A DNA stretch of 64,000 nucleotides from Minisyncoccota bacterium. GTDB lineage: Bacteria > Patescibacteriota > Minisyncoccia > Phycocordibacterales > JBAYGS01. The notes below the pieces were generated by a model. It saw only the letters and a list, made by a program, of their open reading frames with translations. It had not been told where the DNA came from and did no database searches. The stretch spans positions 89,942-153,941 of the forward strand of contig JBAYGS010000001.1 of NCBI GenBank assembly GCA_041666545.1, read 5' to 3'. Of this stretch, positions 10,228-45,009 are shown in pieces (position 1 is the stretch's first letter; each line of letters starts with the position of its first letter). Both the position numbers and the translations under genes were made by a program.

Positions 10228-11472
10228 ATGCGCCAGTCACAACTTTTCACTAAATCACGCAAAGAGGCTCCAAAAGATGAGGTGGCCAAGAACGCCGAAC
10301 TTTTGATTCGAGCCGGTTTTATCAATAAAGAAATGGCCGGTGCCTATTCTTATTTGCCTTTGGGCTTAAGGACTTTAAACAAAATTGTTGGGATCATCCG
10401 CGAGGAGATGAACGGCTTGGGCGCCCAGGAACTTTTTTTGACGGCGCTACAAGAAAAAACTGTTTGGGAAAAGACTGACCGCTGGAGCGACGATAAAGTT
10501 GATAACTGGTTTAAAACTAAATTAAAAAGTGGCACTGAATTAGGCTTAGGTTTTACTCACGAGGAACCACTGACGGCCTTGATGAAAAATCACATCAGCT
10601 CTTTTCGGGATTTACCACTCTCAGCCTACCAATTCCAAACCAAATTTAGAAATGAAGCCCGCGCCAAGAGTGGCATTTTGCGTGGTCGAGAATTTTTGAT
10701 GAAGGATTTGTATTCTTTTTCTAAAGACGAAAAAGAGCACAATGAATTTTATGAAAGGGTTAAGGGCGCTTACAGTCGAATTTTCCAAAAAGTCGGCTTG
10801 GGTGATCAGACCTATGTGACTTTTGCTTCCGGAGGAAGTTTTAGCAAATATTCCCACGAATTCCAAACTCTGACCTCAGCCGGTGAAGATAATATTTATG
10901 TTTGTAATTCCTGCCGCATCGCCGTCAACGAGGAAATTATTAAAGATCAGCCAACCTGTCCGAACTGTAAAAGCGACAAACTCGAAGTCAAAAAAGCGGT
11001 TGAAGTCGGCAATATTTTCAGTCTTGGCGATAGGTTTTCCAAAGCCTTGGATTTGGTGTATCTTGATCAGGCCGGCGTTAAGAAACCGGTGATTATGGGC
11101 TCCTACGGCATCGGCCCAGGCCGAGTCATGGGTACCATTGTTGAGATTAATTCCGATGAAAATGGCATCATCTGGCCAAAAGCGGTGGCACCCTTCCAAA
11201 TTCACCTGATTTCAGTTGACGGTGGCAAGCCGGAGATTAAGGAAAAGGCGGAGAAAATTTATGAGGCTCTACTCAAAAGTGGCACGGAAGTTTTGTTCGA
11301 TGACCGAGAATTGCGCGCCGGCGAAAAGTTTGCCGAAGCCGATTTGCTGGGTCTCCCGCTTCGAGTAGTCGTGAGTGATAAATCCTTGAAGGCTGGTGGC
11401 GTGGAAGTCAAAGAGCGCAAGGGTGGGGCAGTCCGAATTGTGGCAGAGGAGCACATTTTAAGCCAGGTCTAA
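10228..11472 (+). CDS. proS: prolyl-tRNA synthetase, short form without INS editing domain
   Basis: N-terminus QLFTKSRKEAPKDEVAKNAELLIRAGFI, class II motifs, only 414 aa. Confidence 0.85.
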   Translation: MRQSQLFTKSRKEAPKDEVAKNAELLIRAGFINKEMAGAYSYLPLGLRTLNKIVGIIREEMNGLGAQELFLTALQEKTVWEKTDRWSDDKVDNWFKTKLKSGTELGLGFTHEEPLTALMKNHISSFRDLPLSAYQFQTKFRNEARAKSGILRGREFLMKDLYSFSKDEKEHNEFYERVKGAYSRIFQKVGLGDQTYVTFASGGSFSKYSHEFQTLTSAGEDNIYVCNSCRIAVNEEIIKDQPTCPNCKSDKLEVKKAVEVGNIFSLGDRFSKALDLVYLDQAGVKKPVIMGSYGIGPGRVMGTIVEINSDENGIIWPKAVAPFQIHLISVDGGKPEIKEKAEKIYEALLKSGTEVLFDDRELRAGEKFAEADLLGLPLRVVVSDKSLKAGGVEVKERKGGAVRIVAEEHILSQV

Positions 11473-11582
11473 AATACCAATCTGCGAATTTGATTCCCAT
11501 CAACTAATATCCGAATGGGAAGTTTTTCTCCTATTAGTTATTCGTAGATTGGGATAAAATTCGTGGATTGGTATTACATTTT

Positions 11583-12644
11583 ATGAAAAGAATTATAAAT
11601 AAATTTGGCGAGATGTTTTCCCAGGATATCGGTATCGACTTGGGCACGGCTAATACTTTGGTTTATGTGAGTGGGGAAGGCATCGTCATCAACGAGCCGT
11701 CGGTAGTCGCTATCAACCAAAAAACCGGACGCGTGGTCGCCGTCGGTAGTGAGGCCAAACAAATGCTCGGCCGCACACCGGCCCACATCGTGGCGGTACG
11801 CCCGCTCGTTGACGGGGTCATTTCCGATTTCGAAGTGACCGAGGAAATGATTCTCTACCTTTTGAATAAAGCCCAAGGTGGGAAAAAGAAATTTTTTGGC
11901 CCGCGCGTGGTAGTCGGCGTGCCGTCCGGTGTCACCAATGTCGAGACTCGCGCTGTGCGTGACGCCACCAAAAACGCCGGCGCCAGGGAAGTTTTGATTG
12001 TTGAGGAGCCGATGGCCGGCGCAATCGGCATTAAACTGCCGGTAATGGAACCGGTCGGCAATATGGTAATCGACATCGGCGGAGGTACTTCGGATATCGC
12101 GGTGATTTCACTCGGCGGGATTGTGCGCTCGAAAAATTTGCGCGTGGCCGGCGACCGATTGAATAATGATATTATCGCTTACATCAGAAGCGAGTTTAAA
12201 ATTTTGATTGGTGAAAAAACTGCTGAGGAGGTGAAAATTAAAATTGGTGCGGTGATTTCCGGTGAACGCCCGACTGAAGCTACGATCCGTGGCCGAGATT
12301 TGGTGACCGGACTACCTCGCGAGGTAATCGTCACCGATTCGGACATTAGGGAGGCCATGGCTCAATCAATTGACAACTTGCTCGAATCATCAAAGGAAGT
12401 TTTGGAAACCACTCCGCCGGAAATTTTGGCCGATGTCATGCAACGCGGTATCCACTTGGTCGGCGGCGGGGCACTAATCCGTGGCCTTGATCGCCTACTT
12501 TCTGACTATTTGAAAATCCCGGTTTTCGTTTCTGACGATCCTCTAACGGCGATTGCGCGCGGGGCCGGCGTGATTTTGGAAAATTTGCCCCAATACCAGG
12601 AAGTACTTATTGAAAACGAAGATGACCTACCACCTAAGAAGTAG
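11583..12644 (+). CDS. mreB: rod shape-determining protein MreB
   Basis: MKRIINKFGEMFSQDIGIDLGTANTLVYV matches the MreB N-terminus. Actin fold. The ORF is open from 11568. Confidence 0.9.
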   Translation: MKRIINKFGEMFSQDIGIDLGTANTLVYVSGEGIVINEPSVVAINQKTGRVVAVGSEAKQMLGRTPAHIVAVRPLVDGVISDFEVTEEMILYLLNKAQGGKKKFFGPRVVVGVPSGVTNVETRAVRDATKNAGAREVLIVEEPMAGAIGIKLPVMEPVGNMVIDIGGGTSDIAVISLGGIVRSKNLRVAGDRLNNDIIAYIRSEFKILIGEKTAEEVKIKIGAVISGERPTEATIRGRDLVTGLPREVIVTDSDIREAMAQSIDNLLESSKEVLETTPPEILADVMQRGIHLVGGGALIRGLDRLLSDYLKIPVFVSDDPLTAIARGAGVILENLPQYQEVLIENEDDLPPKK

Positions 12645-18447: not shown

Positions 18448-18521
18448 TGGCAGCGGCGAGGAGACTTGAACCCCTACGGGCGGTTTTGGAGACCGCTGGC
18501 CTACCATTAGCCGACGCCGCT
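18448..18521 (-). tRNA. tRNA-Trp (anticodon CCA)
   Basis: Hand-folded cloverleaf: acceptor AGCGGCG/CGCCGCU, D-loop AATGGTA, anticodon stem GCGGU/ACCGC with loop CUCCAAA, T-loop TTCAAGT, discriminator G, encoded CCA. Confidence 0.8.
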
Positions 18522-18584: not shown

Positions 18585-19355
18585 CTAGTTGTCATTTAAT
18601 TTTTTTGCAGAAAAGCCGAAAATATCTTTGTACCTTTTTTCCCCAAATAGGACTGGGTAAAAATCCTGTGTGGCCTTAATCTCAGTTTTGTTCGAAGGAT
18701 TAAAACCATAGACCTCGCCCTTTTTAAAAACTTTCAAATTCTCAACACCTTTTGTCAGACGGAAGCCCCTCGGTTTTGGGACAGTGGCATAGACTTCGAG
18801 AAATAATTTCTTCTGCTCCGGATTTAGGCCAGATCGATCTAAAATTTTAAAATGCTGAAGTATCAGAAGAATGGCATTTCGAGTATCCTTAAAAGTCTTA
18901 GTGCTTCTGTCTTTGCCAAATTCGAGTCCAATCCCAATTCTCGCGTTTGATATCAGGGCATTTTTTTCGGTTGCCTTCATGTAGAGAACATTTTTTGCAT
19001 TCGTAGCCTTAACAACTTTCATTGTCTCAGCATCAAGTTTGGTGACAATCACGCAGGATTTAAGCTCGCTTTCAGTAGAGTGAACATCTATTACAACATC
19101 GTAGGATTTTATCCTAGGTAACAACTGATGAGCTAAGCGCTCCTCATAAGTGCCATCCTTCCTTCCGGGAAACGACCGGTTAAGGTCAGACTCGATAAAG
19201 CGCTTCCTTTCTTTAACCGCTCGCTCGTTGGCAATCATAAAATCAACCCTACCTTTTGACAGGTCGAGTTCCTTTAAAGAAGCGATCACTCTCTGGCCCA
19301 GGCTTTCTGTGCCATGAGTGCCACCATTAATTAATATTGATGTCAGTTTTTTCAT
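18585..19355 (-). CDS. succinylglutamate desuccinylase/aspartoacylase (AstE/AspA) family zinc deacylase
   Basis: N-terminal INGGTHGTE (the GGxHGNE-type motif) and a conserved downstream His. 256 aa. Confidence 0.55.
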   Translation of the reverse strand: MKKLTSILINGGTHGTESLGQRVIASLKELDLSKGRVDFMIANERAVKERKRFIESDLNRSFPGRKDGTYEERLAHQLLPRIKSYDVVIDVHSTESELKSCVIVTKLDAETMKVVKATNAKNVLYMKATEKNALISNARIGIGLEFGKDRSTKTFKDTRNAILLILQHFKILDRSGLNPEQKKLFLEVYATVPKPRGFRLTKGVENLKVFKKGEVYGFNPSNKTEIKATQDFYPVLFGEKRYKDIFGFSAKKLNDN

Positions 19356-19411: not shown

Positions 19412-20122
19412 TTAGCAGGCTTCGCCCAAAAACAGAAAGCCGTCACGGGTTTTGCCGTCTCTAATCCGCAAGGAAGTCTGAAACCATCGGTTAACTTCCT
19501 CATCATCAGACTTCGGTATCTCATCGTACAGGCACTGACTGTAGAGGTCATGTGACACGAAGGTTTGCTCATTGAAGCTACCGTTTCGGTCGCTCATGAG
19601 CACCTTTGCAGATTTTCGCCACTCGGCAGGAACAATTGGACTGGCCGGGTTTGCGGAAACCCTTTTGCAAAGTTTCCGCAAAAAACAGAACATGACGGGA
19701 TTTTGGGTGGTAAACCCAATCTTCCGAAGTCCAGACTCTGCGAACAGTGTCTTAACTGTCGCAATACCAACACCGCGAGTCTTGTGTTGTTTCCCAATCA
19801 AAACCCCAAACAGATAGAAGAGATCATGCTCTGAATGAAGATTGGCCGAGGCAAACCCGAGCACATCCGTGTCGGAATAGGCCAAGGCAAGCATGTCTCC
19901 ATCCTGCGTATGCTCCTTCACATCGTCATAAAAGCCCCGGCTTTCAGGACGGCCGAAACTAGATATTCCAGTTCGGTAGAGTTTTTCCAGCAGGGCCTCT
20001 GAGAAATCCTTTGGAGCTCTGCTGAAAGCTAGTTTAGGTTTTGCCAGCACCCCTACGCTGAAACCTCGAAACTTGACTTCTTTTCCACTACCAGCCAAAA
20101 CAAAATCGCTTGGCGTCTTCAT
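19412..20122 (-). CDS. GNAT-fold acyltransferase-like protein
   Basis: GVLIGKQHKTRGVGIATVKTLF resembles the GNAT motif A (R-x-x-G-x-A). 236 aa. First gene downstream of the T-box leader. Confidence 0.4.
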   Translation of the reverse strand: MKTPSDFVLAGSGKEVKFRGFSVGVLAKPKLAFSRAPKDFSEALLEKLYRTGISSFGRPESRGFYDDVKEHTQDGDMLALAYSDTDVLGFASANLHSEHDLFYLFGVLIGKQHKTRGVGIATVKTLFAESGLRKIGFTTQNPVMFCFLRKLCKRVSANPASPIVPAEWRKSAKVLMSDRNGSFNEQTFVSHDLYSQCLYDEIPKSDDEEVNRWFQTSLRIRDGKTRDGFLFLGEAC

Positions 20123-20164: not shown

Positions 20165-20420
20165 CAGTTTCTTGCCCAAAAGCAAGAATCCGCCCTTATA
20201 ACACAATCCAATGATTATGTACTAAGGGCGGATTACCGCGGTGCCACCTTATTTGCAAAAAGGTATTCCTTTCTGCCACTTCGCTGTCTTACGCCACTTC
20301 AGGCAAACAACAGCATTCCTGATAACGGGGGAGTCCGGATTTCCACTATCGCAGAAATCACTTTCGCTACCAACTATCTTACAGTCGGCAGCAAATTTCG
20401 ACCCAGCCCTCGGAAACATT
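20165..20420 (-). promoter_or_regulatory. T-box riboswitch leader (antiterminator bulge UGGC; discriminator-compatible with tRNA-Trp)
   Basis: Minus-strand sequence AAUAAGGUGGCACCGCGGUAAUCCGCCCUU matches the T-box consensus. Antiterminator: A1 AAGG:CCUU, 7-nt bulge UGGCACC, A2 GCGG:CCGC. Competing terminator AAUCCGCCCUUA...UAAGGGCGGAUU plus a U-run. Promoter TTGACA-N18-TAAACT. The Stem I specifier was not resolved. Confidence 0.7.
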
Positions 20421-20531
20421 TCGCCGAGGATCGAAATAAGTTTGTTTAAGTTTACTTGAATCCAACTCTTGGTGTCAACTTGACTTTTGTCTTCCAGATG
20501 ATAAGGTTCGGACAGGAAAGGACAATAACAA

Positions 20532-21902
20532 ATGAAAACGAAAGCCGTTCCGATTACCGAAATTAGTGAAATCCGTCGAATTCTCTGCCCACCAAATCTG
20601 GACCGTTCTGAACTGTTGGCGTCCAGGAGACAAGGGTCTCCTGAGCTAAAAGTCGAACAGGAAGTGCGAGCCATGAAATCTGTCACTTTCCACTGTGGAA
20701 AGTGTAAGGTCAATACGTGTGGCATCGAAAATGATCCTGGTGCCTCTGTCCGCCACTGTCCAGGCTGCAATTCAATCTTGATGCTCTGCCCGGTCTGCCA
20801 CAAGGCAACATCTGGCACGGAAAAATTCAAGATTCTCATCTGCGACAGTTGCCACACAGAGTTTGTCACCGACACAACAGTCCAATCGCTTATCGATATG
20901 GACCGCAAATCTCGACAAGTGGTACTCTCTGGAATCCGGGCGACCAACCGTCTTCACCTGGGAAATTTCCTGGGTGCAATCCGACAGTTCGTCCAGTATT
21001 CAACAGGCGACAACCTGTGTCTCTATTTCATTGCCGATTGGCACACTCTGACGACCTGTCAGGATGCCGCCACCGTTACCGGCAACAGTGTTGAAATCGC
21101 CATGAATTACATCGCCGCAGGACTCGATCCGGAGCGATCAATCATCTACGCGCAGTCCAGTGTTCCAGAAATTGCCGAGCTTGCCCTGTATCTTTCGATG
21201 ATTCAGGACAAAGGTGAACTCGAAGTTCTGCCGACACTCAAGGATCTGCTCCGTGGTGGTGCCAACATGAATCTGGGCCATCTCTCTTACCCGGTCCTCA
21301 TGGCTGCCGACATCCTGGGTCCAAAGGCGACCTTAGTGCCGGTTGGTTCTGATCAGATTCCAAATGTTGAATTGGCGCGTCGTTTGGCGAAGAAGTTCAA
21401 CCGCCGTTTCGGCCAGACCTTCGTGATTCCCGAAATCGGAGAGCAGAAGGTTAAGATCCCGGGCCTCGGTGGCGGTAAAATGGCCAAGTCAGACGAAAGT
21501 TCCTGCATCTTCATTGATGACGCCGCTGAGGTTGTGGCGAAAAAGTATGCCAAGCACGGAGTCACCGACAAGAACAAGGTCAAACGCGACGATTCCGGTG
21601 TTCCCGAAAATTGTGCCTCAATCTATCCGGTCTACCAAGTCCTTCTTGGGGAGGAGTCCTCCTTGCTTCAAGAAGTTGCAAACGGATGTAGGGTCGGTTC
21701 GCGAACCTGCCAGGAGTGCAAGGCTGAACTCGCCAAAATGGTGAACTCAATTCTTGAACCAGTTCGCGTCAAACGCCGCGAACTGGGGGGGAAGAGGGAA
21801 TTCGTCCGTGAAGTCCTGCACTTCGGTGGCTTAAAAGCCCGTGAGATAATTCGGCCGACCCTCGAGCTGGTTCGAGAAAAGCTCGGTATCATCGCGCCTT
21901 AG
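20532..21902 (+). CDS. trpS: tryptophanyl-tRNA synthetase paralog with N-terminal tandem zinc-ribbon extension
   Basis: Core: VVLSGIRATNRLHLGN (HIGH), YPVLMAADIL, VPVGSDQIPNVELARRLAKKFN, KMAKS. The N-terminal 120 aa carry four CxxC pairs (HCGKC/HCPGC, LCPVCH/ICDSCH). A canonical-looking internal start exists at 20898 (MDRKSRQVVLSG). GC-richer than the backbone. Confidence 0.75.
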   Translation: MKTKAVPITEISEIRRILCPPNLDRSELLASRRQGSPELKVEQEVRAMKSVTFHCGKCKVNTCGIENDPGASVRHCPGCNSILMLCPVCHKATSGTEKFKILICDSCHTEFVTDTTVQSLIDMDRKSRQVVLSGIRATNRLHLGNFLGAIRQFVQYSTGDNLCLYFIADWHTLTTCQDAATVTGNSVEIAMNYIAAGLDPERSIIYAQSSVPEIAELALYLSMIQDKGELEVLPTLKDLLRGGANMNLGHLSYPVLMAADILGPKATLVPVGSDQIPNVELARRLAKKFNRRFGQTFVIPEIGEQKVKIPGLGGGKMAKSDESSCIFIDDAAEVVAKKYAKHGVTDKNKVKRDDSGVPENCASIYPVYQVLLGEESSLLQEVANGCRVGSRTCQECKAELAKMVNSILEPVRVKRRELGGKREFVREVLHFGGLKAREIIRPTLELVREKLGIIAP

Positions 21903-21947: not shown

Positions 21948-22292
21948 AATTTGCCAAATCAGCTTGACACACTGTGTGCGAGCGCTAAACTTTACGGTAG
22001 AGGAACATACCAAGAAAGGACAGACGTTATGAGTGCAACCTCAACCGAGCCGAAAGTCACCAGTGATGGCCGTTTGTTCTATTGCAAAACACTCGACCAG
22101 TGGTTTAGCATCGAGGCCATCGAAGCTGATCCGCATTTGAGCCTGCAGGAAGACGAGACGGTGAAATTTTCGCCGAGCGCCGACAAGGAGGCATCCGTAG
22201 CCTAATTTGGCCATTTCCACCAAGCCCCGCCGCCCTAAAACCTAGTGGCGGCTTTTAATTTTCGAGGACTAATCATCTGCTATAATCAAAAC

Positions 22293-22790
22293 ATGGAAAT
22301 CAAATCGACTTTCACAAATCAGGCCAATCAGGTTCTAGATGTGATTTATCGCGAGGCCAACCCGACCAATAGGCTCGAAGGTAGAATTGTGCAAGGCGTC
22401 CACGCCTTCTGTTTCTGCGAAGGCAAATTTGTCCTGGTCTACAATGGAGAAAAGGGAAGTTGGACGCCACCAGGTGGTGGCATCGAGCCAGGCGAAACCT
22501 TTGAAGAAGCCGTCACTCGCGAGGTCAAGGAGGAAACGAATATGCGCGTTTTACAGCAGAAATTTATCGGTTATCAAGATGTCTTCGAGCCAACAAAAAT
22601 TGTCAGACAGACCCGTTCGGTTTGTCTCGTTGAGCCTTTTGGCGACTTCATCTCCGACCCGGACGGAGACATCACTGAAATCAAGCTTATCGACCCTTCC
22701 GACTATAAAAAATACTTCGACTGGGGAGCGGTTGGCAGTCACCTCATGTCCAAGGCTATAAAGATCGCAAACAGTCTCAAGAAGGAATAA
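22293..22790 (+). CDS. NUDIX hydrolase
   Basis: Nudix box GGGIEPGETFEEAVTREVKEETN. A TATAAT lies just upstream of the ATG at 22293. Confidence 0.75.
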   Translation: MEIKSTFTNQANQVLDVIYREANPTNRLEGRIVQGVHAFCFCEGKFVLVYNGEKGSWTPPGGGIEPGETFEEAVTREVKEETNMRVLQQKFIGYQDVFEPTKIVRQTRSVCLVEPFGDFISDPDGDITEIKLIDPSDYKKYFDWGAVGSHLMSKAIKIANSLKKE

Positions 22791-44049: not shown

Positions 44050-45009
44050 ATGGCCGACAAAAAGAAAATTTTACTATCGGGCATCAAACCAACCGGCAAT
44101 TTGCATTTGGGCAACTATTTCGGAGCGATCAAGCAATTCGTAGAATTGCAAAATAAGTACGATTCCTATGTTTTCATCGCCGACTATCACGCCATGACAA
44201 CTCTCCTTGATGCCAAGGAACTATCAGAGAATAGTTTTAACATTGCGGTAGATTACATGGCCTTGGGTCTTGACCCGACGAAAATGACGCTTTTCAAGCA
44301 AAGCGACCTGCCCCAAGTGACCGAACTTTGCTGGATTTTCAACTGTCTAACAACTGTGCCATACCTCGAAAGAGCTCACGCCTATAAGGACGCGGTCGCC
44401 AAAGGTAAAGAGGCCAACATCGGACTTTTTGATTACCCAATTTTGATGGCCGCTGATATTTTAATCCAGGATGCTGATATCGTACCGGTGGGGCAAGACC
44501 AGAAACAACATGTCGAATACGCTCGCGACACGGCGGAAAAATTTAACCGCACCTTCGGTAAAGCCTTTAAAATTCCTGAACCTTACATCCTGAAAGATGT
44601 CGCCGTGGTCCCCGGAATTGACGGTCAAAAAATGAGCAAGAGCTATAACAACACCATTCCTATTTTCGCTTCAGATGAAGAGATCAAAAAACTAGTTATG
44701 GGGATTGTCACCGATTCCAACTCCGGACGTCCCGAAAATGTTTACGCCATTCATAAGCTGATTAAACCGGAAGCCGAGCTTGAAAAAGTTTACACAGAAT
44801 TTGCCGGCAAGTATCAAAAATTAAAGGAGGCTCTTTACAATGACCTCGTCTCATTCTTGACACCCTTCCGTGAAAAACGGGAGCAACTGCTTAAGGATAG
44901 GGCAGGGGTCTTGGCAATTCTCAAAGCTGGAGGCGACAAAGCCCGCGCCCGCGCTGAAGCTAAAATGGCAGAGGTCCGTAAACTGACCGGCCTGACTTTG
45001 ACCGCTTAA
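44050..45009 (+). CDS. trpS: tryptophanyl-tRNA synthetase (canonical)
   Basis: ILLSGIKPTGNLHLGNYFGAI, YPILMAADIL, VPVGQDQKQHVEYARDTAEKFN, KMSKS. The ORF is open from 44029. Confidence 0.85.
   Translation: MADKKKILLSGIKPTGNLHLGNYFGAIKQFVELQNKYDSYVFIADYHAMTTLLDAKELSENSFNIAVDYMALGLDPTKMTLFKQSDLPQVTELCWIFNCLTTVPYLERAHAYKDAVAKGKEANIGLFDYPILMAADILIQDADIVPVGQDQKQHVEYARDTAEKFNRTFGKAFKIPEPYILKDVAVVPGIDGQKMSKSYNNTIPIFASDEEIKKLVMGIVTDSNSGRPENVYAIHKLIKPEAELEKVYTEFAGKYQKLKEALYNDLVSFLTPFREKREQLLKDRAGVLAILKAGGDKARARAEAKMAEVRKLTGLTLTA

Follow-up and report, generated by a model that had tools for sequence, protein, structure and literature searches.

What does an additional, N-terminally extended TrpRS do in a very small genome? 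To our knowledge, the bacterial TrpRS is considered a minimal class I synthetase, free of extensions and of accessory subunits. The 64-kb stretch of DNA analysed here (the window) nevertheless encodes two such enzymes, one of which is preceded in frame by a cysteine-rich extension. The answer depends on whether the extension is real, to which class its TrpRS core belongs and in which company the extension is found among related genomes. The features on which the analysis is based are summarized in Table 1.

Table 1. Positions of the fused gene, its parts and the associated features within the window

Feature	Positions	Strand	Size, properties or basis
Double zinc-ribbon + [4Fe-4S]-type bacterial TrpRS, entire ORF	20532..21902	+	456 aa; ATG start, TAG stop
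N-terminal leader, residues 1-47	20532..20672	+	Alignments, AF2 pLDDT
Double zinc-ribbon module (predicted), residues 50-112	20679..20867	+	Cys conservation, pLDDT, standalone homologs
Linker helix (predicted), residues 114-126, from module to strand 1 of the Rossmann fold	20871..20909	+	DSSP, both AF2 models
TrpRS core, residues 127-456	20910..21902	+	Profile, motif and structure matches
Predicted [4Fe-4S] ligand motif, anticodon-binding domain	21612..21719	+	Alignment to 2G36
tRNA-Trp (CCA)	18448..18521	-	A1-U72, G73, encoded CCA end; followed by intrinsic terminator
AstE/AspA-family zinc amidohydrolase-like protein	18585..19355	-	256 aa; PF24827, E 1e-22
GNAT-like protein, first gene after the T-box	19412..20122	-	236 aa; 32% identical to L003 homolog
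T-box-like leader, short Stem I	20172..20436	-	Rfam RF00230 match, fold z-score -7.7
Second TrpRS	44050..45009	+	319 aa from ATG 44050; TTG 44029 upstream also open

Extent of the fused gene

An earlier note on this DNA had reported two trpS genes, and both were recovered with the TIGR00233 profile (248 bits for 20532..21902 and 280 bits for 44029/44050..45009). It had further described approximately 120 extra N-terminal residues with four CxxC pairs, in frame with the first gene, and predicted that they form two zinc ribbons. We found approximately 125 such residues. The extension is kept in approximately 32 independent clusters (NCBI, JGI, ENA and Logan; 48-62% identity) with all eight cysteines conserved, supporting both proposals and providing the check on conservation in relatives that the note had called for. 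The identical protein is also on record from a 341-kb contig of 'Candidatus Paceibacterota'. This record, together with the approximately 32 clusters, shows that the extension is neither a fortuitous open frame nor a product of misassembly.

A Shine-Dalgarno-like GGA is present 9 nt 5' of the ATG at 20532, and a second in-frame ATG (20898, Met123) is located inside the linker helix. It is highly improbable that the product starts at Met123 and that the upstream frame is fortuitous or a separate small ORF: although this ATG lies seven residues before the VLSGIRAT strand, approximately where extension-less homologs start, its column contains Met in only one of approximately 31 homologs, no Shine-Dalgarno element was found before 20898, no stop codon separates module and core in approximately 32 independent homologs, and the helix is continuous across the junction in the AF2 models. 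Translation from 20898 only, with a CxxC-coding frame unconserved in relatives, which the earlier note had named as the outcome that would speak against a genuine fusion, was therefore not borne out. The fused ORF may contain an additional internal start.

The leader was seen in fused forms only in our alignments. It contains a conserved motif, P-[IV]-x-[DN]-x-x-E-I, which is predicted to be helical (residues 11-18), and then a linker that varies in sequence and is modelled with low confidence (AF2 pLDDT 70-91 for residues 1-20 and approximately 50-65 for residues 21-47). The model of the whole fused protein has a pLDDT of 86 and a pTM of 0.82.

The fused copy had also been described as GC-richer. 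This is correct in comparison with the other trpS gene (52.2 versus 45.9%), but the value is unremarkable among the 53 long ORFs of the window, where it ranks fifth. We did not adopt horizontal transfer as an explanation of the GC content, because the signal is weak, only +1.5 SD from the gene mean of the window (46.9 +/- 3.6%).

The TrpRS core and its predicted iron-sulfur cluster

The core matches TIGR00233 at residues 128-453 (248.3 bits versus a cutoff of 176.75) and Pfam tRNA-synt_1b at residues 128-408. The HLGN (H142-L-G-N145, 20955..20966) and KMAKS (K316-M-A-K-S320, 21477..21491) motifs are present, GSDQ is intact, and the Trp-recognising Asp is D274. In comparison with solved TrpRS structures, the AF2 model comprises a Rossmann fold and a C-terminal helical anticodon-binding domain (328-340 aligned columns, TM 0.83-0.90 on target). 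In the latter domain, each cysteine of C361-x24-C386-x6-C393-x2-C396 has its counterpart in Cys236/259/266/269 of aligned Thermotoga maritima TrpRS (PDB 2G36), and the four cysteines are invariant in an alignment of 37 sequences. By its sequence, the fused core is a member of the [4Fe-4S] TrpRS class known from T. maritima, with a predicted cluster. This class is common in Parcubacteria.

The TrpRS encoded at 44050 is of the Cys-free type with HLGN and KMSKS, the other widespread TrpRS type of Paceibacteria. The term 'diverged', previously applied to the fused copy, is appropriate insofar as the two enzymes are distinct (38% identity over the core), but it is incomplete, as the fused copy represents the [4Fe-4S]-type class. 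Fe-S and Cys-free TrpRS genes occur on one contig in the window and in loci L001, L146, L150 and L173. At least one further TrpRS gene is present near the fused gene in the window, L001, L096, L173 and L175, and L173 contains three TrpRS genes within 12 kb.

Because the catalytic and anticodon-domain signatures are all intact, the fused protein of the window probably still charges tRNA-Trp, as an auxiliary synthetase. The catalytic motifs are complete in 30 of the 33 fused proteins, including that of the window. In three fused homologs (P0019, P0021 and P0028), the second Lys of KMSKS has been lost, as has the Asn of HLGN in two of them, whereas the Zn and Fe-S cysteines are retained despite this decay. 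This gives a hint that the fused paralog may be kept for a non-catalytic purpose. The fused copy looks auxiliary because it is usually found near another TrpRS gene and because these three homologs have degenerate catalytic motifs. Recoding of UGA to Trp by means of a second TrpRS was considered and rejected; UGA terminates 10 of the 53 long ORFs, and the linked tRNA-Trp anticodons are all CCA.

The double zinc-ribbon module and its split forms

The CxxC pairs of the module are C55/C58 and C76/C79, followed by C86/C89 and C104/C107. All eight cysteines are invariant or nearly so in 25 aligned fused homologs, and T62 and G64 ('TSG'), L83 and S94 are also invariant. Strands are predicted at residues 53-55, 60-62, 82-85, 92-98 and 101-104 (AF2 pLDDT 94-97). 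The module is predicted to be a tandem zinc ribbon, a fold that its sequence does not separate from a rubredoxin-type site.

No Pfam or NCBIfam profile reached its cutoff against the module (best E 0.006-0.09, 13-17 bits versus cutoffs of 25-27), which places it outside the curated zinc-ribbon families (Pfam DZR, Zn_ribbon_6 and similar). A PDB sequence-profile search yielded no match below E 0.03, a Foldseek search against the PDB yielded generic zinc ribbons only, none of them significant (E >= 0.14, TM <= 0.46), and a literature search on zinc ribbons and TrpRS yielded nothing useful. The module is previously undescribed, with no matching Pfam family or solved structure. The earlier statement that a zinc-ribbon fusion is not standard for TrpRS agrees with these results, as no such architecture was found in Pfam, the PDB or the literature searched.

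Homologs of the module also exist as standalone proteins (approximately 45 representatives at 50% clustering; E 1e-13 to 1e-7). In related Parcubacteria, a standalone gene encoding 66-116 aa is located immediately 5' of an extension-less Fe-S TrpRS gene. This arrangement was found in all 10 loci examined (L007, L008, L010, L015, L016, L017, L026, L150, L154 and L167), with ATGA overlaps or gaps of 4-31 nt, and the two genes are translationally coupled. Because relatives carry it as a small gene just 5' of the same enzyme, the module looks like a dedicated partner of the Fe-S TrpRS class. Apart from the monophyletic fused clade, P0033 represents a separate fusion; the module and Fe-S TrpRS have undergone Rosetta-stone fusion at least twice. 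The module has also been fused once to a GCS2/YbdK-like ligase, adjoining an AstE gene (P0272, L006). Many Fe-S TrpRS lineages that are interleaved with the split forms have no module at all, and the module is therefore dispensable for charging.

A conserved tryptophan island

The locus of the fused gene is a conserved tryptophan island that consists of a tRNA-Trp(CCA) gene, a UGG T-box leader and a two-enzyme operon. Like the split forms of the module, the tRNA-Trp gene and the T-box operon lie beyond the coordinates covered by the earlier note, and they proved decisive for its interpretation. The tRNA-Trp gene is the sole tRNA gene in the window and lies 2 kb from the fused gene; in approximately 20 loci, it is 0.1-3.6 kb from the Fe-S TrpRS gene.

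The Rfam RF00230 match of the leader (20221..20379; 45.3 bits, E 7e-9) is below the gathering score of 93 and does not include most of Stem I. However, the sequence displays the hallmarks of a T-box, namely a UGG specifier in the 3' internal loop of Stem I (20403..20405), an F-box (CCGUUA), a T-box (GGUGGCACC, the UGGC of which pairs with G73-CCA) and a terminator (12 bp plus U tract), the 5' arm of which directly follows the T-box sequence. This terminator would compete with a putative antiterminator. The same layout, likewise with a UGG specifier, is present in more than 55 related loci. A literature search on T-boxes in CPR yielded nothing useful.

The leader governs the divergent operon and not the fused TrpRS gene, with which the operon shares a 409-nt intergenic region. 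No T-box or other riboswitch was found 5' of the fused gene on the + strand. In L005, the fused gene is located downstream of the T-box operon in the same orientation.

The GNAT-like protein has no Pfam or NCBIfam match of its own, but its L003 homolog matches Acetyltransf_1 (E 8e-6). In most relatives, its position is occupied by a GCS2/YbdK-like ligase, a family for which a PDB sequence-profile search yielded nothing useful. Orthologs of the AstE-like protein (41-46% identical) adjoin Zn-ribbon/TrpRS genes in L001, L005, L006, L010, L015, L174 and L175. A NUDIX gene is also among the neighbours of the fused gene, and L001 contains YcaO and Peptidase_C39 genes approximately 5-8 kb from its fused gene.

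Possible roles of the fused protein

The explanation that we favour, and hold as a whole to be slightly more probable than not, is that translation begins at 20532 and yields a single polypeptide, and that this polypeptide is a bacterial-type [4Fe-4S]-class TrpRS with a captured double zinc ribbon, an auxiliary enzyme that still charges tRNA-Trp and uses the module as a binding domain. A [4Fe-4S]-class TrpRS would have gained, by gene fusion, the module of approximately 60 residues and a short N-terminal leader, with an alpha-helix connecting the module to strand 1 of the catalytic domain. The module would serve as an added binding domain that holds tRNA-Trp and/or docks the co-regulated ligase and hydrolase, and would thus be the built-in equivalent of a small TrpRS accessory subunit. 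A precedent in CPR is B2-TyrRS, a class Ic synthetase whose N-terminus carries an RNA-binding domain fused by way of a long helix (PMC5370408). Three observations weigh against this explanation: the basic charge of the zinc core is only slight (mean net on average approximately +2), the module is dispensable for charging, and catalytic motifs have been lost in three fused homologs. Nevertheless, we infer that binding of tRNA or a partner is a better account of the module than a redox or regulatory function.

A wider proposal, possible but doubtful in our estimation, is that the Cys8 zinc ribbon is the defining subunit of an unrecognised CPR system of Trp homeostasis. Acting in cis or in trans, it would physically couple the Fe-S TrpRS both with tRNA-Trp and with the GCS2- or GNAT-like ligase and AstE-like hydrolase under T-box(UGG) control. 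If this is true, tRNA-Trp charging would be tied to Trp salvage or protection, or gated by the redox or metal state, and the fused paralog would be a non-catalytic sensor in some lineages.

It seems unlikely that the module is a redox or metal partner, the rubredoxin-like Cys4 sites of which (Fe or Zn) serve the [4Fe-4S] cluster of TrpRS by transferring electrons, by protecting or repairing the cluster or by redox gating, while the Cys-free 44050 enzyme acts as a metal-independent back-up. The role of the cluster is unexplained in the solved T. maritima enzyme (PMC2954223). Among TrpRS genes, the module occurs only with those encoding the four cluster cysteines and never with Cys-free types, and the co-existence of both types on the single contigs mentioned above is also consistent with such a division of labour; however, many Fe-S TrpRSs lack the module, and the pairing with the Fe-S type may simply be due to phylogeny. 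The knuckle fold is common to zinc ribbons and rubredoxins, but the module has no rubredoxin Pfam match. Moreover, it is also fused to the GCS2-like ligase, for which we know of no Fe-S cluster.

Rather improbable, too, is a regulatory paralog that has the sensing or sequestration of Trp or tRNA-Trp as its main function and catalysis as a secondary one. Its zinc ribbons would bind nucleic acid, and it would tune either its own expression or the T-box(Trp) operon next to it. The intergenic region shared with that operon, the arrangement in L005, the further TrpRS gene that is nearly always nearby and the decayed motifs of P0019, P0021 and P0028 would fit this role. However, the great majority of fused proteins, including that of the window, have complete catalytic motifs, the split form may accompany the sole Fe-S TrpRS of its locus, and an operator was found in neither DNA nor RNA.

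Antibiotic self-resistance or the supply of Trp-tRNA to a natural-product pathway, as in indolmycin-resistant Streptomyces TrpRS or VlmL-type enzymes, is very unlikely. Such roles are known for auxiliary TrpRS copies elsewhere (PMC9437257), and a Trp-derived compound is conceivable as the product of neighbours of the GNAT, ligase and amidohydrolase types. However, these neighbours are preceded by a T-box that responds to Trp starvation, an arrangement characteristic of supply genes and not of secondary metabolism, no recognisable biosynthetic cluster was found within +/-10 kb in the loci with called genes, despite the YcaO and Peptidase_C39 genes of L001, and the system is widespread among tiny CPR genomes. 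The inhibitor-contacting His is not substituted: the His of FIADWH, which we take to be the equivalent of the indolmycin-resistance site H43 in B. stearothermophilus TrpRS, is retained. The link to antibiotic resistance, which the earlier note had mentioned for auxiliary TrpRS copies of other bacteria, thus finds no support in a neighbourhood of tRNA-Trp, T-box, GNAT-like, AstE-like and NUDIX genes.

A whole clade possesses what looks like a dedicated Cys8 partner module for TrpRS, in trans or fused, on the Fe-S form. The fusion/split pair leads to the testable hypothesis of a two-component TrpRS, and provides a handle on the purpose of the TrpRS iron-sulfur cluster, on what makes tiny CPR genomes retain two or three TrpRS genes and on the function of the widespread T-box(Trp)-controlled pair of GCS2-like ligase and AstE-like hydrolase. 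The hosts of this pair are believed not to synthesise tryptophan. Orthogonal-pair engineering is a further, practical reason for interest in co-existing TrpRS/tRNA-Trp systems.

Comparison with known systems

The [4Fe-4S] TrpRS of T. maritima (PDB 2G36, PMC2954223) is the best PDB sequence match of the fused protein (E 2e-57; TM 0.89 on target), and PDB 1yi8 is a weaker one. The two proteins share the bacterial class Ic fold and the aligned cluster cysteines, but the first spacer is C-x22-C in T. maritima and two residues longer, C-x24-C, in the fused protein. Furthermore, the T. maritima enzyme has neither an N-terminal extension nor a known accessory protein, in contrast to the 125-residue zinc-ribbon extension and the second TrpRS found here.

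The top Foldseek matches of the module, all non-significant, were ZifS TTHA0897 (PDB 8yoz), LysW and the ribosomal proteins eL43 and eS27, with which it has a Cys4 knuckle and a beta-hairpin in common. LysW is acidic, whereas the module is basic with an unconserved C-terminal tail. A LysW-like role as an amino-group carrier found no support in view of the basic core and the unconserved C-terminal tails of the standalone forms.

Deinococcus radiodurans TrpRS II, a NOS partner, and the indolmycin-resistant Streptomyces TrpRS (PMC9437257) are similar in that a second TrpRS of approximately 30-40% identity exists beside the housekeeping enzyme, and in the idea that a protein partner modifies the role of the enzyme. 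However, neither has a zinc-ribbon module or an Fe-S motif, and their context is a stress or antibiotic cluster, whereas that of the fused gene is tRNA-Trp and a Trp T-box operon.

The TrpRS-A/ORF1 system (Mukai et al. 2017, PMC5370408) also belongs to CPR and combines an extra TrpRS, clustered with tRNA-Trp, with a co-evolving partner ORF that is small or unknown. TrpRS-A is, however, archaeal-type, with an A73 tRNA-Trp and an obligate, aaRS-like helical ORF1, and its lineage is Microgenomates. The fused TrpRS, of a Parcubacteria/Paceibacteria lineage, has a Cys8 zinc ribbon, its best matches are all bacterial TrpRSs, and its tRNA carries G73 and A1-U72. The B2-domain-TyrRS described in the same study resembles the fused protein in architecture: in this case, too, a long helix joins an acquired N-terminal domain to a class Ic synthetase.

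Fusion of a double zinc ribbon to TrpRS

The fused gene is an uninterrupted frame of 456 codons. Over residues 128-453 its product scores 248 bits with TIGR00233, the equivalog for trpS (cutoff, 176.75), and Pfam tRNA-synt_1b also matches this region. As the earlier note had described, an N-terminal stretch with four CxxC pairs (C55/58, C76/79, C86/89 and C104/107) precedes this match; it comprises ~125 residues. An identical protein is already recorded from a 341-kb 'Candidatus Paceibacterota' contig, and independent assemblies contribute approximately 32 more clusters (clustered at 90% identity), which show 48-62% identity at equal length and 89-100% query coverage. The extension is thus kept in related genomes: the eight cysteines are conserved across these clusters, invariant or nearly so in the alignment, as are T62, G64, L83 and S94. 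Because an N-terminal motif, P-[IV]-x-[DN]-x-x-E-I, recurs in most fused homologs, the start is placed at ATG 20532, which has a Shine-Dalgarno-like GGA 9 nt upstream. In the AlphaFold2 model obtained with the homolog alignment as input (whole protein: pLDDT 86, pTM 0.82), the predicted double zinc ribbon (residues 50-112, hereafter the module) has a pLDDT of 94-97, and an unbroken helix (114-126) connects it to the first Rossmann-fold strand. The homolog conservation, the shared N-terminal motif and the continuous helix therefore show that the fusion is real, module and TrpRS core being translated as one protein. Nothing favours an additional internal start, which had been suggested at ATG 20898: Met123 is not conserved among the homologs, and no Shine-Dalgarno element precedes this codon. 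At 52.2% the gene is GC-richer, as stated previously, but is no outlier against the 46.9 +/- 3.6% of 53 long ORFs.

Synthetase core and additional TrpRS genes

The best solved relative of the core is T. maritima TrpRS (2G36; E 2e-57), to our knowledge the sole TrpRS structure with a [4Fe-4S] cluster. C361, C386, C393 and C396 align with its four cluster ligands and are invariant in 37 of the 37 aligned relatives; the first spacer is x24, versus x22 in the C-x22-C-x6-C-x2-C arrangement of the T. maritima enzyme (PMC2954223). HLGN, GSDQ and KMAKS are all intact. In superpositions on solved structures of bacterial TrpRS, none of which covers the extension, the core model reaches TM 0.83-0.90. Judged by these signatures, the core is a bacterial TrpRS of the predicted Fe-S subclass. 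Its closest extension-less relatives are Parcubacteria TrpRSs of ~330 aa (55% identity; Giovannonibacteria, Azambacteria and Moranbacteria).

The window does contain two trpS genes, as reported earlier. The second product (280 bits to TIGR00233) is 38% identical to the fused protein over the core, has none of the four cluster cysteines and has hundreds of relatives at 66-71% identity in Paceibacteria, e.g. Taylorbacteria and Zambryskibacteria. This Cys-free gene lies 22 kb from the fused copy; in locus L001 a Cys-free gene, 65% identical to that of the window, is 8.5 kb away, and a third type is found 2.5 kb away in L096 and 1.7 kb away in L175. L173, a single 46-kb contig as assembled with a transposase fragment at its start, carries three TrpRS genes within 12 kb, and L003 probably has a second TrpRS as well, encoded by a putative trpS (tRNA-synt_1b) at the edge of this locus. 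Fe-S and Cys-free types also co-occur, with no fusion, in L146 and L150. KMxKS is kept in 30 of 33 fused proteins; in the other three (P0019, P0021 and P0028) its second Lys is gone (KMSES, KMDES and KMGEP among them), and P0019 and P0028 have HLGI in the HLGN position, while every Zn and Fe-S cysteine is kept. The nearby TrpRS genes and this motif decay suggest that the fused copy is an auxiliary enzyme. A non-catalytic function may explain its retention in a few lineages; in the window's protein none of the motifs has been lost.

In L175, the TrpRS gene 1.7 kb from P0019 encodes a Cys-free protein of 346 aa, and a YbaK-like tRNA_edit gene is found there too. Beside tRNA-Trp in L001 is a 24-25 codon remnant resembling a TrpRS N-terminus (HIGH region); it shares 67% identity with the Cys-free type and may derive from a trpS that was lost or rearranged. 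Separate GluRS/GlnRS-type catalytic fragments (PF00749; 289 and 86 aa) flank the fused TrpRS locus in L003.

Split and fused forms of the module

The module scores below the cutoff of every Pfam and NCBIfam family, giving only weak generic zinc-ribbon matches, and PDB searches by sequence and fold returned nothing significant (best: ZifS, eL43 and LysW, all E >0.1). A search of 1.84 billion representative proteins with an extension profile yielded 52 matches: a few fused TrpRSs, ~45 standalone proteins (66-116 aa) that likewise have these four CxxC pairs and the 'TSG' motif, and P0272, in which the module is N-terminal to a GCS2/YbdK-like carboxylate-amine ligase. The P0272 gene adjoins an AstE-like gene and has no TrpRS within 8 kb. 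Every standalone gene with readable context (L007, L008, L010, L015, L016, L017, L026, L150, L154 and L167) lies immediately 5' of an extension-less Fe-S TrpRS gene, with ATGA stop/start overlaps or 4-31 nt gaps. In two standalone partners (P0243 and one in L150) the zinc-ribbon unit is partly duplicated, giving six CxxC pairs.

In a rough neighbour-joining tree, the fused proteins of the main group are monophyletic, split and module-less Fe-S TrpRSs are interleaved in its sister clade, and P0033 represents a second, independent fusion. The module-less loci were checked for a module ORF, which is truly absent. At the sequence level, this distribution is a classic Rosetta-stone pattern, and the module appears as a dedicated yet dispensable partner of Fe-S TrpRS.

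Tryptophan-related gene neighbourhood

A T-box-like leader precedes, and would control, the divergent operon of GNAT-like, AstE/AspA-family and tRNA-Trp genes, instead of a synthetase or trp biosynthesis gene. It scores below gathering against Rfam RF00230 (45 bits, E 7e-9) because its Stem I is ultrashort. Its 3' internal loop contains a UGG (Trp) specifier. The F-box reads CCGUUA, UGGC within the T-box sequence GGUGGCACC fits the G73 discriminator, and a 12-bp terminator is followed by a U tract (fold z-score -7.7). In approximately 20 related loci, the distance between an Fe-S TrpRS gene and a tRNA-Trp gene is 0.1-3.6 kb.

In L001, L005, L010, L096 and L175, the same leader (specifier, [CU]UGGG) lies 5' of a gene for a GCS2/YbdK-like ligase of 260 aa, usually followed by an AstE-like gene; in L005 the fused TrpRS lies downstream of both on the same strand. 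Among 80 metagenomic loci with the ligase gene at their centre (L093-L172), a motif scan placed a T-box(UGG) 5' of it in at least 55, and a TrpRS gene occurs within 8 kb in 22; an AstE/AspA-like gene is 3' of the ligase in ~27. The ligase family has invariant YELSACQ and HGTIEFRMF motifs and no PDB relative by sequence. In split loci, Fe-S TrpRS is often followed directly by a fusion (~370-406 aa) of a chorismate-mutase-like N-terminal domain, assigned from sub-threshold matches, and a class I SAM methyltransferase. T-box-like leaders also precede Glycos_transf_3 (TrpD-like) genes with BtpA-like or LMWPc neighbours in L008 and L173, which suggests that this Trp regulon extends to further genes. 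Another recurrent neighbour of the zinc-ribbon/TrpRS genes encodes a NUDIX hydrolase.

Coordinates of features in the window and in related loci (L numbers)
Feature	Locus	Position	Strand	Remark
Fused TrpRS	window	20532..21902	+
Cys-free TrpRS	window	44050..45009	+
tRNA-Trp(CCA)	window	18448..18521	-	sole tRNA gene; A1-U72, G73 (canonical bacterial identity)
AstE/AspA-family	window	18585..19355	-
GNAT-like	window	19412..20122	-
T-box-like leader	window	20172..20436	-	between fused gene and divergent neighbour
NUDIX hydrolase	window	22245..22790	+	60% identical to L007
NUDIX hydrolase	L007	1627..2115
NUDIX hydrolase	L001	6069..6602
NUDIX hydrolase	L173	6300..6650
Fe-S TrpRS, extension-less	L173	3029..4021	-	by tRNA-Trp
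Fused TrpRS	L173	4622..5986	+
Cys-free TrpRS	L173	14074..15027	+
Fused TrpRS P0019	L175	10001..11368
TrpRS remnant	L001	7695..7769	-
GluRS/GlnRS-type fragments	L003	3553..4422; 11453..11713	-
Module-ligase P0272	L006	8001..9008
Standalone module	L150	11964..12311	-
GCS2/YbdK-like ligase	L001	8830..9612
GCS2/YbdK-like ligase	L005	8315..9100
GCS2/YbdK-like ligase	L010	9136..9936
Chorismate-mutase-like/methyltransferase	L008	7312..8532		between Fe-S TrpRS and tRNA-Trp
Same	L010/L011	7426..8541		same
Same	L015	9169..10317		same
Same	L017	11154..12233		same
T-box-like leader (TrpD-like)	L008	8860..9103	+
T-box-like leader (TrpD-like)	L173	2607..2701	-

Possible role and comparison with known systems

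The window's fused protein would charge tRNA-Trp, with the module as a putative binding domain that the helix joins to the catalytic domain at its N-terminal end. We favour binding of tRNA or of a partner enzyme, because the helix-tethered domains of the B2-TyrRS fusions of CPR bacteria are analogous (PMC5370408) and because one protein (P0272) combines this module with the co-regulated ligase. That the module is instead a rubredoxin-like redox or metal partner of the Fe-S cluster is a less likely alternative, as is, with similar weight, a role of the fused protein as a regulatory sensor. An antibiotic-resistance role carries low weight: the context contains no recognisable biosynthetic cluster within +/-10 kb, the neighbouring operon is under supply-type T-box control, and the fused TrpRS retains the inhibitor-contacting His, which we take to be the indolmycin-contacting site. 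A LysW-like carrier role is disfavoured by the module's charge (mildly basic, mean net about +2) and unconserved tails, and UGA-to-Trp recoding is excluded, UGA being used as a stop.

In Pfam, NCBIfam, PDB and the literature searched, coverage of which was incomplete, we saw no account of the module, its split and fused association with TrpRS or the T-box(UGG) ligase-hydrolase operon of CPR bacteria; earlier descriptions of any of these are possible. D. radiodurans TrpRS II, the indolmycin-resistant TrpRS of Streptomyces (PMC9437257) and the CPR TrpRS-A/ORF1 system (PMC5370408) each resemble the window in the presence of two TrpRSs, but their defining features are not shared.
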